Shown here: positions 51,230 to 57,600 of the stretch, one piece after another
Layout: each line of letters starts with the position of its first letter
Position numbering within the stretch: the stretch's first letter is position 1
Source: a virus
UHGV virus genome: UHGV-0142425
Direction: 5' to 3' (one strand)
Length of the DNA: 64,000 bases
Made by a program: the position numbers and the translations under genes
Notes under the pieces: model-generated
What the model was told of the DNA's origin: nothing
Seen by the model: only the letters and a program-made list of their open reading frames with translations
The model's database searches: none

Positions 51230-51877
51230 ATGAGAAAACTATTACTACCGTTATTATTTATGACTGGGACTGTTAATGCAGCATCAAGCGTAAAGGATAT
51301 TTGTACCGATTATACGAAATACCTTGGGCATGTTTACGGCTTTGCTGTCAGTCAAGACGAATCCATGCGCAAGAAGTTACTGTCAGATATGAAACGTCTT
51401 AAACTTTCTGAAGCGATGGTGCAGCAAGAACTATATAAAGTCGCAACCAACGAAAATGCTAAATATCAATATTCTCGCCTATTAAATCCCGACGCAAACG
51501 AGATCAATCGAAGCACTTTCGATTATATGGTAAAGGCATGCGAAACCGCTCCTGATTTTGCTATCCCTAGCTGGGGTGTGCTGGTGGCGAGCAATGCCGT
51601 TAATAAAGAAGATGTTGGAAGAAATGGCATTGACTCAATCAGAAATGCCCCAGGAATGCGCCATCAAAACGTGCAGGGTACGCTTGAAGAGCGGGCCAGG
51701 GGGCCGGGAACAAACTCCCCAATGGGAAACCTCTCACCAGAGGAATTGCAAGAGTATAACCAACGGATGGAGCAGTATGAGAAAGCAGCACGCGAACAAA
51801 TGGAACAGCAAAAGAACGGCTCACTTAATACCTTCCAGCAAGGTTTAAAAGCGCTTAATTTACCCTATGAATGGTAA
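51230..51877 (+). CDS. Secreted/periplasmic protein, about 215 aa; candidate superinfection-exclusion (Sim-like) protein
   Basis: Signal peptide MRKLLLPLLFMTGTVNA; internal motif shared with Sit. Confidence 0.45.
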   Translation: MRKLLLPLLFMTGTVNAASSVKDICTDYTKYLGHVYGFAVSQDESMRKKLLSDMKRLKLSEAMVQQELYKVATNENAKYQYSRLLNPDANEINRSTFDYMVKACETAPDFAIPSWGVLVASNAVNKEDVGRNGIDSIRNAPGMRHQNVQGTLEERARGPGTNSPMGNLSPEELQEYNQRMEQYEKAAREQMEQQKNGSLNTFQQGLKALNLPYEW

Positions 51878-51938
51878 ATATATTATGGATAACCAATTAA
51901 AATATTGATAATCGTTAATATCCAAAGGAGATAAATTA

Positions 51939-52415
51939 ATGCGCATCAAACGATTTTTTCTAATTCTTGCTTTGCTTACACCATTTTCATCAATGGCAAA
52001 TGTAAGCAAATGGTCAACCGGCGAGACTCATGGTGTTCGTTCTTATGCTGTTTCCAGCAAAGATAATTATACGATTACATTTGAGTGCGATGTTGGATTT
52101 AATAATACGGATCCCAATCAAGTAGGAACACGACTACTCACTCTCATGAAAACAGAACCTGGCGGTGAGTCATTTGATGCTAAAAAAGAACAAATAACGC
52201 TGAAAGTTGGTGATGATGAATATCCTATCAGTTCTATCGGTTCCTCTGTGGGTGATAGTTACTGGTATGGTTTTTGGTCAGATACCCCTGATATGGAAGT
52301 AAAAACATTCGATGCATACGTAGACGGAAAAAAAATCGCAACATTTACGCTACGTAAGGCCGCAGAGCTTTTCAACGCGGCACCTGAAGATGGCTGCCTG
52401 AAGCGCGCAAAATGA
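51939..52415 (+). CDS. Secreted protein, 158 aa
   Basis: Signal peptide MRIKRFFLILALLTPFSSMA. Confidence 0.5.
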   Translation: MRIKRFFLILALLTPFSSMANVSKWSTGETHGVRSYAVSSKDNYTITFECDVGFNNTDPNQVGTRLLTLMKTEPGGESFDAKKEQITLKVGDDEYPISSIGSSVGDSYWYGFWSDTPDMEVKTFDAYVDGKKIATFTLRKAAELFNAAPEDGCLKRAK

Positions 52416-52421
52416 CCTGTC

Positions 52422-52442
52422 ACAAATGACTACTCGTAGAAT
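52422..52442 (+). promoter_or_regulatory. Candidate late promoter ACAAATGACTA-N4-TAGAAT, 31 nt upstream of the 52474 start
   Basis: Near-identical to 21808..21828. Confidence 0.45.
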
Positions 52443-53662: not shown

Positions 53663-53676
53663 ATTAAGGAGCAAGG

Positions 53677-54558
53677 ATGCTTTTACCTCTTTTCCCGCTA
53701 CCATCGCGGCCAACTGAATTGATCCAGTTCCGTCAGCCAAATATTGCTGATGCGATGCGTTTCAACTCGATAACACCGGAGGAACAAGAACAACAGACAA
53801 CGGCGTATTTAAAAGCCTTGCTGGCTGAACCCGCGAAACATGATCCCCTGACATGGACGGCGCAGGACCGGATTACCGCGTTATGGTGGATATTTACCGG
53901 CTCCCGTGAAACACCGGTCGAGACATTCACCTACACCTGTAAACATTGCGGTAAAGAGCATTATTACGATTGCGATATGAATGCTCTGGCTGAAGATATC
54001 CAGGTCCTGGAAGTGGAACCGTTCATTGACGATATTGAGGTGTCTGTAGAGGGAGTGCCTTATCAATGGCGTATCGTGCCGCTTGATGGCTGGGCAATGG
54101 AAATGCTGGAGATGCGCCGTGCTGCATTGCCACCTGAAGACGACGCGGAATTCAAAGAAGCGATCGTTGATTTGCGTTTTTGGGAATTCGCTTATCAGTG
54201 TGAGCTTTATAACGATGTTAGCGGTACTCGTGAAGATCAGGCTGAGCGTCGTTATGAAACGATTAAACGGATGGCCATTGATACTGAATTTATGAAGCTG
54301 GCGGCACACATCCGACTGGCTCATGAAAAGCTCGAACATGGTTTACCGTGCTACCTTGATAAAGGTGAAATGCGTCTTCGTCTCCCGCCGCATAAATGCC
54401 CAAATCAGGATAAAAAGGAGTCCACAGAGGGTGCATATACCCGTCTGTGGGTGCCCTTTCGGGTTACCGACTTCATTCCACAGGTGGGGATTGAAAAGCT
54501 ATCAGACCTTAGTGTCCAACCTGGTTTTGTATGGGGGTATACCGATTCAGGACGCTGA
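53677..54558 (+). CDS. Hypothetical protein, 293 aa, with CKHCGKEHYYDCD Cys cluster
   Basis: ORF track. Confidence 0.5.
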   Translation: MLLPLFPLPSRPTELIQFRQPNIADAMRFNSITPEEQEQQTTAYLKALLAEPAKHDPLTWTAQDRITALWWIFTGSRETPVETFTYTCKHCGKEHYYDCDMNALAEDIQVLEVEPFIDDIEVSVEGVPYQWRIVPLDGWAMEMLEMRRAALPPEDDAEFKEAIVDLRFWEFAYQCELYNDVSGTREDQAERRYETIKRMAIDTEFMKLAAHIRLAHEKLEHGLPCYLDKGEMRLRLPPHKCPNQDKKESTEGAYTRLWVPFRVTDFIPQVGIEKLSDLSVQPGFVWGYTDSGR

Positions 54559-54639
54559 AAGGCTCACTGAATCCTATGCGTTTTTCCTGTTGGAGAAACT
54601 GGAAGAAAAACTTAAACCGAAACGGTAGGCGATAAGATC

Positions 54640-57600
54640 ATGGAAAGAAAAAACGCCAACATTGACGATGTTATAAGGACAGTTGAAACCGCCAGCGCAA
54701 AAGAGCTGGAAGAGCTTGCAGGTATCCGGGAAGCTGTTGAAGATTTGAAAGGGGGGCGCGTTGCAACTGTTGATCCTGTCTCTCGCAGTGTGTCGGCATT
54801 AAATCGCACAATCGAAAATTCCCGGCCAGACTTTGTGGCCAATGCGCCATCAGTGGACCCTATTGTTGAGGCAATGAAACGGCTTAATTTAGGGGACGTT
54901 TCTCGTGTAGTTCAGGAGGATGTTGCTCTACAGGAACCGCAGGCCAAATCAACTACGCGAAAGGGTAAAAAACGACGCAAGAAGGCTATAACAGAAGATG
55001 TAAAGGCGCAACGGACCGAAGCAGCCGAACACGCTCGCGAAATGTTCGGTCAAAAAGGCGGTGCGCAAAAAAGCCAAAACCAACGCGATGCGCGTGGTCG
55101 TTTTATTGGAAAGTCAGGGAGTAAGGCCGCAGCGGAAGATGCCCGTGCTGAACGTGCTGAAAAGGCCAGGCGCAAAGAGGATGATGAGCGTCTAAATGCT
55201 GAATCAGGTTTATTAAAAAAACTGTCAAAAGTAGCTGAAGGCATAGGTAACCCTTCAGAGACTCGTGCCGTCGATGCGTTAGGTTATGCCGTTGCTGGTC
55301 CATTGTGGGCAGCAGGGAAGGAGCTTGGCGGGATATCAAAAGAAGTTGGTGGATCGCTTAATGGTGCCAGAAAGTCTATTGCCGATGTGATTCGTGGCAA
55401 TGACGATAACAGCCGTAGAAAAGGTTTTTTTAGGCGTAAATCGCAAAATAGTGCCGATGTCGTTCAGGTTAACACCCAAAAACGGACGGTTCAGGAACTT
55501 CAGGAGCAGACCAGCGAAATTAAAGAGGGCAATGACAAGATTCTCAGCGCCCTTGATCAGATAGCCAAAAACACCGGGAAAAAGAAGGGCGGCTTGCTGT
55601 CCAAACTATTTAGCCTGTTAGGGAAGGGGGCCGGTGGCGTCGCGTCGTTGTTAATGGGGCGTGGCATGCTGAAAAAAGCTGGAGCACTCGCTTTTGGCGC
55701 TCTGGGGGCAAAGAAACTTGTAGGAATGCTACGCGGTGGTGGCAAGAAGACTCTCGCCCATGAAGGCGGAGATTTGGCTGCCCGGGCAGCAGGTAAACTT
55801 GGATTAAAGGCAGTTGGTAAAGGGGCGTTACGCGCAATTCCCCTGGTCGGCACAGTGGCTGGAGGTATTTATGATGCGGTAACCGGTTGGAATGATACAG
55901 AAGCGCAACGTCGAGCGTTTGGGCTTAAATCAGGACAAGATCCATCATTCCAGCAAAAAGCCGCTTATACGTTAGCTAATGTTCTTGATATGGGGGGACT
56001 GGTATCTGGTATTAGCAGCGCCATTGGTGAGGTTCTCAAATCACTTGGATTTGAGGATATCGGCAATATGTTGCAATCATTTTCGACGGAAAGTATTGCC
56101 CAGGCCATTGATAGTGGGATTACCAACTTAGAAACATATATTTCTAACCTTGGCGACACCATTTCTACCAAGTTCGATGATTACACAGCAAAGATTGGTG
56201 ATGCTGTTTCAGCATGGTTTAGCGATACATCTAATAAGCTGCTTGAAAAGCTGGATGCCATCAAAGACTTCTTTACTGTCGATAACCTGAAACAGGTTTT
56301 CAGTGATGCAATTGATAGTGCAATTGATTTCATTAAGAACCCAGGGAAACACATTAAAGAGGCGGCTGGTAATATTTGGGATGGGGTTAAAAATTTACCA
56401 GGTAAAGCATTAGATGCAGCGGTTGATGCCGTTAAAAATACCCCTGCGGCAATGATTGTATCAAAAATACCCAATCCGATCGGCGAGGCTAATGCGAAAG
56501 AAATCACTCCAGAGTTAAAAGCTCCGGTTAATAGCCACCAGGAGACGTCTGATTCTAAAACTGAATCCGATGCCAAACAGAGTAATATTGCTACCCGCGT
56601 GATAAATGCGGCACTGGACACAGCGAAAGATAGCAATAAAACAGTTAAACAAACAGCCAATCAGATTATCAATGCAAATGCCGTAGAAACGAGCAATAGC
56701 GCGTTGCAGACAATTGATAAAGCTATTGGTCAAAATAGCTCGTCATCATCGTCGCTTAATACCACTGGCACCAGGAATGACATTCAGAAAGCTGCGGATA
56801 CCTACAACAATGGCAACTTGGATGTAAAAGTCGGAAGTCTTGGCGCTGAAGGTAAGGCAAATCTCGATAAGTTGGCTCCGTATTTTGCTGAACTAGAGAA
56901 TAAATACGGTCTTCCAGAAGGCACTCTTTACGCGATTGCTGCAACTGAATCTGGTGGTAATCCGTATGCAAAATCCCAAACCGGTGCTCTGGGGATGTTT
57001 CAGTTCACGGGGATTGCTCGTGAAGAGACTGGCTTAGCTGAAGGTGAATCGTTTGATCCTGTGAAATCGGCAGAAGCTGCGGCTCTTCTCATGAGCAAGT
57101 ATCTGAAGCAAGCCAATGGAGACTTAAACGAGGCCATCACTGCATATAACGCTGGGTTTGGCACTATTAATAAGTGGAAAAAAGGCACAGGTGACTTATC
57201 GAAAGAAAACCGTGAGTACGCGATCAAGGTCAATACTCATCGTGCTCGCTATTTAGGTGGTGAAATCTATACACCTGGGGCAGGAGCACAGGGTGGGGCG
57301 CAATATGGAGTGAGGGGACCACTGCCTGATAACGCCGTTATCGATCAGTCTACTGGTCTGGCGTTTACCCCTGGTGATAGCCCGTTTGAGAAAGGCGGTC
57401 TGGTAGACAAAATCGGCAATGCTGTTGGCGTTAACGATCTGGTCAACAAATTCATGAATGGCCGGGGGATGCGTCGGGAAGTCGTCCAGGGAACCCTCGA
57501 AGAACGTGCACGAGGAAGGGGAACCGCAACGGCAGCTGGCAATGTGTATGTTGATACACCTATGCCAGTTGAAGAGGCACGTCCGGTGGCCAACAACTCA

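Follow-up and report, generated by a model that had tools for sequence, protein, structure and literature searches.

Intact simA of P1-like phages: a predicted exported protein of the sim locus that shares a module with the tape-measure protein Sit

The 64,000-nucleotide (nt) stretch of virus genome UHGV-0142425 analysed here (the window) carries an intact version of simA, a gene of which phage P1 has kept only the 5' end. The gene, referred to below as A, encodes a predicted exported protein of 215 amino-acid residues (aa), a segment of which is homologous to a segment of Sit, the tape-measure protein encoded downstream on the same strand. The position of A at the sim locus and its identity as intact simA are the main new point of this analysis; A is, judging from sequence and genomic place, a good candidate for a factor that blocks the entry of related phages at this locus. 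Between 50500 and 58100 the window is 97% identical to the P1-family phages vB_EcoM-Ro157c2YLVW, P1 and P7; P1 and P7 cover only 83-86% of that interval, because one cassette differs. The parts of the two proteins that the argument refers to are the following.

51230..51877, plus strand: gene A, full-length member of the SimA family, predicted to be exported, 215 aa, phrog_3933
51230..51280, plus strand: predicted signal peptide of A, MRKLLLPLLFMTGTVNA, with signal peptidase I (SPase I) cleavage after VNA and before ASS
51281..51613, plus strand: all-helical N-domain of A, aa 18-128, with two invariant Cys, C25 and C104
51593..51733, plus strand: Sit-like linear module in A, aa 122-168
51734..51877, plus strand: variable C-terminal tail of A, helical, ending LPYEW
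54640..58032, plus strand: sit, tape-measure protein with an SLT lytic transglycosylase domain, 1130 aa, phrog_2533 (the profile matched to A)
57340..57546, plus strand: conserved Sit module, aa 901-969, of which aa 927-969 (nt 57418-57546) align to A
57610..57678, plus strand: second half-copy of the module in Sit, DQLGAQMGIDGLYDKLINARGMR, aa 991-1013

The 20-residue motif that an earlier note on this DNA had reported as common to the two proteins is real. In A it reads GMRHQNVQGTLEERARGPGT (aa 142-161, nt 51653-51712) and in Sit GMRREVVQGTLEERARGRGT (aa 943-962, nt 57466-57525, inside the range 57465-57530 given by that note); 16 of the 20 residues are identical. Pairwise alignment by BLASTP, which the note had proposed as a check, extends the match to about 47 residues (A 122-168 against Sit 927-969, 23/47 identical, E=8e-9), and when A is compared with all open reading frames (ORFs) of the window, Sit is the sole cross-match (BLASTP, E=3e-7). 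The PHROG profiles of the two families also find each other's members: phrog_3933 matches Sit and phrog_2533 matches A (E=7.5e-8). B (the gene next to A), SimB, SimC, Upf50.5, Upf50.0 and a 394-aa ORF found at some related loci, compared in the same way with the proteins of the window, disclose no further mimicry of this kind.

How specific the module is was gauged with a profile of 61 positions, made by aligning the window's Sit and A with five divergent A homologues. An hmmsearch of 1.84e9 representative proteins with this profile returns nine that pass E<=0.001, and all nine belong to the A family (P0020, P0005, P0039) or to Sit (P0035, P0036, P0038) or are fragments of these. The motif is specific, then, and not the widespread low-complexity segment that would have undone the note's reading; as a matter of sequence distribution, confinement of the module to two families of P1-like phages among 1.84 billion proteins is firmly established. 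The same profile finds nothing significant among the sequences of the PDB, and the C-terminal region of Sit that includes the module (aa 905-1130) matches no Pfam family. A word-indexed search with a 107-aa Sit segment returned only Sit fragments, many of them frameshifted or garbled, and is uninformative.

At the level of DNA the two copies have drifted far apart. The 60-nt stretches coding for the 20-mers agree at 40 of 60 positions. Where an identical residue has degenerate codons (15 cases), the two genes use different synonymous ones 12 times, while only 4 of the 20 amino acids have changed. The similarity is therefore old and has been kept at the level of the peptide, with no recent copying. 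That the segment is an old homology maintained by selection on the peptide we regard as firmly established from these comparisons, and the earlier description of A as copying a part of Sit stands as a statement of homology and falls as a statement of recent duplication. DNA so diverged is also unlikely to serve as a patch for recombination. A proteins with overall identities of only 44-58% still have the module, and so does the shortest natural form, 163 aa long, which ends right after it. Among nine divergent lineages in which the tail of A was compared with its own ~20-kb locus, seven give a single significant match, to the Sit module; in the Cys-tail lineages L008 and L009 the tail of A has no match to its own Sit.

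The second part of the finding concerns where gene A lies. Its surroundings, in order along the window, are as follows.

50851-50936, minus strand: C4 antisense RNA (Rfam)
51004-51056: a1b1 targets of the C4 RNA (Rfam)
51117..51133: C1 repressor operator Oc4, AAATTTATTAGAGCATT, reverse complement AATGCTCTAATAAATTT, mapping onto the annotated Oc4 of P1 (NC_005856)
51139..51165, plus strand: predicted sigma-70 promoter PsimA, transferred from the P1 annotation via the alignment
51939..52415, plus strand: gene B, predicted exported protein of probable YfjT family (PF27224), 158 aa, phrog_3429
52424..52442, plus strand: late promoter LPsit, at the right edge of the variable sim cassette

The C4 RNA and its a1b1 targets place the locus at the margin of ImmI in a P1-like plasmid-prophage; the left-hand boundary of the sim locus is marked by Oc4. 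Upstream of gene A, a stretch of 141 nt that includes Oc4 and the predicted PsimA is identical to P1 at 140 positions. Gene A lies between Oc4 and LPsit and is transcribed away from c4, which is the location of simA. In P1, according to its annotation, the Oc4-LPsit interval holds the simA-simB-simC superimmunity operon. P1 DNA homology (95%) reaches 51369, which is codon ~47 of A, and restarts at 52422; 51203-51369 corresponds to simA of P1 NC_005856 (L001 2205-2363), and the 52-aa P1 SimA protein, MSYKAGEVIMRKLLLPLLFMAGTVNAASSVKEICTDYTKYLGHVYAFAINDY, matches the ORF starting at 51203 over the first ~45 residues. Between 51369 and LPsit, P1 has simB and simC, and the window has the rest of A and gene B. 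It follows that P1 simA is what remains of gene A at its 5' end. That gene A is the intact form of simA is firmly established by this alignment of the two loci; in P1, simB-simC take the place of the rest of A plus gene B, and their acquisition probably cut the gene down. Published comparisons place sim among the low-GC, recently acquired and highly variable regions of P1-like elements (PMC9603915, PMC6906374), which agrees with simBC as the intruder. Database sources already apply the name 'simA domain protein' to some A homologues, and the P1 annotation calls SimA a 'putative superimmunity accessory function'. In the literature searched, neither an intact SimA nor the similarity between A and Sit came up; Lobocka et al. 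2004 may contain an earlier notice.

Backbone homology with both P1 and P7 restarts at about 52417-52422, at LPsit. The cassettes of the window, of P1 (simBC) and of P7 (upf50.5/50.0) all rejoin the backbone within a few bases of LPsit (52417-52424), and this common rejoining point suggests a preferred recombination junction.

The kinship of A with the P1 operon is a matter of simA, not of simC. Like A, the P1 sim operon, whose exclusion of superinfecting phages takes effect after adsorption, occupies the Oc4-LPsit locus behind a nearly identical upstream region and specifies products with signal peptides; its simA is homologous to full-length A. One locus, L057 (9974-11451), pairs a complete A (221 aa if read from the upstream ATG) directly with a 260-aa SimC homologue, and it is the only locus seen that combines intact A with SimC. 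The SimC sequence itself is visibly unrelated to gene A: neither P1 SimC nor the SimC homologue of L057 has a BLASTP match at E<=0.01 among all ORFs of the window. By position and homology, A thus belongs, on sequence criteria, to the simA lineage and not to the SimC family. The analogy with P1 Sim drawn in the earlier note accordingly survives in its positional and genealogical part (the sim locus, the intact simA, the L057 arrangement) and is not supported in so far as SimC, with no sequence similarity to A or B, is the protein to which exclusion is attributed. In P1, moreover, SimA is a 52-aa stump with neither N-domain nor module.

Two in-frame ATG codons compete as the start of gene A. 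The one at 51230 is the better choice because it is preceded, 6 nt upstream, by a Shine-Dalgarno (SD)-like GGTGAGG; the ATG at 51203, which is the start chosen in the P1 simA annotation, has no SD. Read from 51230, the N-terminus bears out the note's assignment of a signal peptide: judged by a rule-based reading, an MRK n-region, a hydrophobic core with a mean Kyte-Doolittle (KD) value of 1.85 and V-N-A at -3..-1 fit Sec export and SPase I cleavage, and N16, A17 and S19 of this region are invariant among 16 homologues. The mature protein has two quite different parts. An AlphaFold2 (AF2) model based on 16 sequences predicts residues ~18-128 as a confident all-helical domain (pLDDT >90), which is the best-conserved part of A and is present throughout the family; the Sit-like module that follows (aa ~130-169, pLDDT 46-57) is predicted to be disordered, and a C-terminal helix comes after it. 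In other lineages the tail of A is swapped for Cys-Cys modules or is missing.

A match of A to the PTP-like phytase family PF14566 was rejected. It scores 27.2 bits against a cut-off of 27 and covers profile positions 49-132 of 158; A lacks the catalytic C.{5}R, its cysteines standing only in the contexts CTDYTKY (C25) and CETAPDF (C104), and the precomputed PF14566 match is missing in more divergent A homologues. Several 'A' proteins from read archives are 205 aa long. One that was inspected, P0008, shifts frame before the motif into an alternative frame (51558-51848, plus strand), while another, P0005, keeps the motif; the 205-aa forms are probably sequencing errors or pseudogenes. The C-terminus LPYEW (51863-51877) and the SSWW that ends P7 Upf50.0 at the same locus (L002 3470-3482) recall the C-terminal signals of outer-membrane-protein (OMP) type that are sensed by DegS, a resemblance on which we can offer only pure speculation.

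Sit, the other bearer of the module, is a tape-measure protein (PMC9024508, PMC12810830), is essential (PMC10695390, PMC9024508), and was not resolved in the 2026 cryo-electron microscopy (cryo-EM) structures (PMC12810830). The window's copy conforms: more than 1000 aa long and largely helical, with an SLT domain (PF01464, aa 748-857, E=3e-27), it is encoded within the tail gene block, between pmgB and the baseplate genes, and is 97% identical in DNA to sit of P1 and P7. Among ten Sit proteins 43-97% identical to the window's (eight non-P1 ones at 43-58%), aa 901-960 form an island of conservation, with a mean column identity of 0.76-0.83 against 0.40 just before it and 0.2-0.55 after it. The island lies ~45 residues past the SLT domain, and its consensus is TGLAFTPG-SPF-KGGLVDK-G---G---L--KF-N--GMR---VQGTLAERA[RY]G-GT. 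An insertion of ~50 aa (57547-57700, Sit aa ~970-1020, ...DGLYDKLINARGMR), specific to the clade of P1, P7 and the window, holds the second half-copy of the module; the Sit proteins of Salmonella and Klebsiella lack the insertion.

With 28 clusters at 90% identity, the A family is a small one. All matches in PLSDB, and those members that lie on long contigs, belong to P1-like elements (~85-100 kb) of Escherichia, Salmonella and Klebsiella. Gene A is matched by 267 PLSDB plasmids and is full-length in 84 of them (~1/3); about 150 have only a 48-residue stump of the P1 type, and in a further set the gene stops at residue 161. The arrangement of genes at the locus was classified for 69 IMG/VR loci, together with loci fetched by exact protein look-up. 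A scan of genome contigs gave 4 loci only. The window's arrangement, A(215) followed by B(158), is found at about 25 loci. At about 13 loci an A(163), ending ...ERARGPGVAP* right past the motif, is followed by a B-type protein and an ORF of 325-394 aa, and at about 25 more an A stump is followed by SimB and SimC. A and B also occur together in several lineages from Salmonella and Klebsiella, with a different tail on A. In loci of the A(163) type the extra ORF of 325-394 aa sits between the B-type gene and pmgC; at one of them, L044, it has its 394-aa form with an SH3-like C-terminus (11074-12258), and there an inserted 402-aa IS605/TnpB-like ORF (8748-9956) separates gene A from the predicted PsimA. 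Two distant homologues are short of context: the A homologue P0039 (GSMAERARG) occurs on ~1-kb contigs, and the contig of the distant Sit P0038 (GSMADRAYG) has no A upstream of pmgC.

Gene B usually goes with gene A in P1-like elements of E. coli, Salmonella and Klebsiella, and this pairing is firmly established from the genomes compared. A signal peptide and a conserved pair of Cys characterise B, which varies between lineages (32-63% identity) and is probably a member of the YfjT family. Precomputed PF27224 matches exist for all 16 database homologues of B and for the neighbours of A in 8 loci. A Pfam scan of gene B itself found no family, the Pfam version used being probably older than the PF27224 model. 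Since A and B both lie upstream of the late promoter LPsit, they are outside the structural operon.

What might such a protein do? In the mechanism that we propose, the product of A would be exported to the periplasm as a helical domain bearing a flexible, Sit-homologous module of ~47 residues and, probably together with the co-transcribed and exported B, would there interfere with genome delivery by incoming P1-like phages. Sit is exposed to the periplasm only during ejection. The module of A would probably contact the same periplasm-accessible partner as the module of Sit, be it a component of the host envelope or Sit itself through co-assembly, and occupation of that partner by A would block passage through the cell wall or entry of the DNA. 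A might do so in two modes, by competing for the partner as a decoy or by co-assembling with incoming Sit as a poison subunit. Since Sit is periplasmic only at ejection, and the module is under selection in an exported A, a shared partner is the most economical assumption; disorder, as predicted for the module, is expected of a binding motif; and the sim locus is the one place in P1 known for exclusion, with products that are exported, which argues for an entry-blocking role. Superinfection exclusion by A through mimicry of Sit is in this sense plausible. The periplasmic location, the expression from the prophage, the exclusion phenotype and the mode of competition are all matters that we infer. 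That A, with B, hinders periplasmic delivery of genomes by one or the other of the two modes is a reading to which we incline tentatively, giving it somewhat less than an even chance. The more specific proposal, in which intact SimA would be the ancestral exclusion factor of P1-like phages, displaying the docking module of Sit and out-competing the incoming protein, is more doubtful. The interpretation in the earlier note is thus partly supported, its decoy or competitor being one among several mechanisms that fit the data.

A number of observations weigh against an exclusion role for A through its Sit-like module, and the first of these concern the phages in which the locus is best known. For P1, simC is credited with the Sim phenotype (Maillou & Dreiseikelmann 1990, as relayed in PMC2409434), as it is in the P1 annotation, and its product is unrelated to A; P1 excludes with only its 52-aa remnant of A, that is, with neither N-domain nor Sit-like module; and the Oc4-LPsit interval of P7, occupied by upf50.5 and upf50.0, contains no gene A at all. 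The literature search found no experimental report on a role of SimA, A or B in superimmunity or exclusion. The promoter is a prediction only: PsimA is weak by consensus and does not appear in the list from a consensus promoter scan. No informative fold match was obtained for the N-domain, and no model in PADLOC-DB matches A or B at E<=0.1.

The module itself also provides arguments on that side. In an alignment of 16 A clusters, residues are conserved as far as ...N-[AS]-[PR]-G-M-R-[HQ]-Q, where the common sequence ends. Seven of the clusters go on with the second half, V-[QE]-G-[TS]-L-x-[ES]-R-A-[RY]-G-x-G (it is degenerate in P0018); in the other nine it (VQGTLEERARG) is replaced by unrelated Cys-Cys tails, while the Sit of the same phage keeps it. 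The 20-mer therefore cannot be a universal functional element. What is universal in A, by this alignment, is the upstream half only, ...F-x-N-x-[RP]-G-M-R-[HQ]-Q. By abundance, forms of A with the full motif dominate in E. coli. Nor do A and Sit clearly vary together: at N-[AS]-P versus N-[SG]-R, 7 of 10 pairs agree (p ~0.2 by a 2x2 Fisher test worked by hand on pairs that are non-independent, drawn from 8 fetched loci and IMG/VR loci), and the second half shows no consistent tracking, with ERARG in an A whose own Sit has ERAYG. We claim no co-evolution; the pattern would fit two copies under a common conserved partner, or independent constraints.

The likeliest of the rival explanations dispenses with competition. 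The module might be a small envelope-targeting element, binding for example peptidoglycan or a membrane surface, that A and Sit have both inherited and use separately, so that in the periplasm of the lysogen A (with B) could do something else, such as bring about lysogenic conversion, protect the cell from unrelated phages or colicins, or serve in envelope stress. The module's place in Sit, directly past a domain that cleaves peptidoglycan, speaks for this; so do the free exchange of tails among A variants, many of which retain only the first half of the module, the lack of co-variation with the cognate Sit, and the fact that the YfjT family, to which B probably belongs, also gives its name to a protein of a cryptic prophage of E. 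coli K-12. A general anchor should turn up elsewhere, and yet among 1.84e9 proteins the module occurs in no other exported or peptidoglycan-associated one; gene A lies, besides, in the one P1 locus known to hold an exclusion function. We consider the envelope-targeting explanation unlikely on balance, while giving it serious weight.

A direct anti-Sit activity is less probable still. Here the N-domain of A would bind the SLT domain or the module of Sit and neutralise it, in the manner of the T4 Sp protein, and A's own module would be an intramolecular pseudo-ligand or a regulatory element, with no third party to be decoyed. Conservation and universal presence are greatest in just that domain, whose independent fold AF2 predicts with confidence, and A variants that have lost the second half of the module would still work. 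Against this reading, AF2 leaves the module undocked from the N-domain, at the low pLDDT already given.

That the segment is an evolutionary relic, left in A without function by old domain shuffling between sit and the neighbouring locus, we think improbable. The locus, with its mosaic cassettes, is a hot spot of recombination (PMC9603915, PMC6906374) and there are breakpoints on both sides of the motif; against this, synonymous sites are nearly saturated and still 16 of 20 residues have been kept, and the module is retained in the widely diverged A proteins and in the 163-aa form that stops right after it. A role for A in virion assembly or lysis by its own phage, as a Sit chaperone or a structural component, is largely refuted: gene A is adjacent to the tail-tube/sit operon, but it has an export signal, whereas tails assemble in the cytoplasm, it lies upstream of LPsit, P1 (with a truncated copy) and P7 (with none) are viable phages, and a CRISPR interference (CRISPRi) map finds simA, and simABC as a whole, non-essential for plaque formation by P1 (PMC10695390). 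Chance or compositional similarity, which the shortness of the segment and its richness in G, R and E might suggest, is refuted by the pairwise E value, the reciprocal profile matches, the exhaustive search that matches two families only, and the independent recurrence of the same match in divergent lineages.

Proteins that act in the cell envelope against the genomes of other phages have been found in several prophages, and they provide the proposed role of A with precedents rather than relatives. The lipoprotein Ltp of TP-J34 and the inner-membrane protein gp15 of HK97 are proposed to stop genome entry after adsorption, and genetics indicates the tape-measure protein as their target (PMC10883804). 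They are thus exclusion proteins aimed at the class of protein to which Sit belongs. Both are membrane-anchored, whereas A is predicted to be soluble in the periplasm, the paper describes no mimicry of a tape-measure segment, and A resembles neither Ltp nor gp15 in sequence or fold. SieA of the P22 prophage blocks DNA injection by interfering with ejected virion proteins, and mutations that escape it map to the C-terminal regions of ejection proteins (PMC10883804). SieA is not homologous to A and is directed at a set of ejection proteins, not at a tape-measure protein.

T4, a phage of a different type, possesses two exclusion proteins that act at the envelope, Sp and Imm; Sp has been reported to inhibit the tail-associated lysozyme. 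Conceptually Sp comes close to an A that would bind the SLT domain of Sit, although it has no homology to A. We know of no segment that Sp or Imm shares with an injected enzyme.

Elsewhere in the window, a sok antitoxin RNA (RF01794, 47226-47400, minus strand, 114 bits in Rfam) points to a toxin-antitoxin module of the hok/sok type near the ant/kilA region, and four tRNA genes, for Met(cat), Thr(tgt), Tyr(gta) and Arg(tct), lie at 29304-31064 on the minus strand.

If A should turn out to have no exclusion activity, the similarity between A and Sit would come down to a curiosity of domain shuffling in a known recombination hot spot. If the proposal is true, P1-like phages would be using a mechanism of exclusion that is new, a decoy of the docking motif of an injection protein; Sit aa ~901-969 would be an element needed for entry of P1 DNA, and the module could serve as bait for the host factor with which it interacts. 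The classic P1 genome can in any case be read again at this point, with its simA as the remnant of a larger gene that is intact in 84 of the 267 matching PLSDB plasmids. A module shared only by Sit and by a predicted exported prophage protein encoded at an exclusion locus may thus offer an experimental handle on the entry of P1 DNA into the cell and on the Sim block to it.

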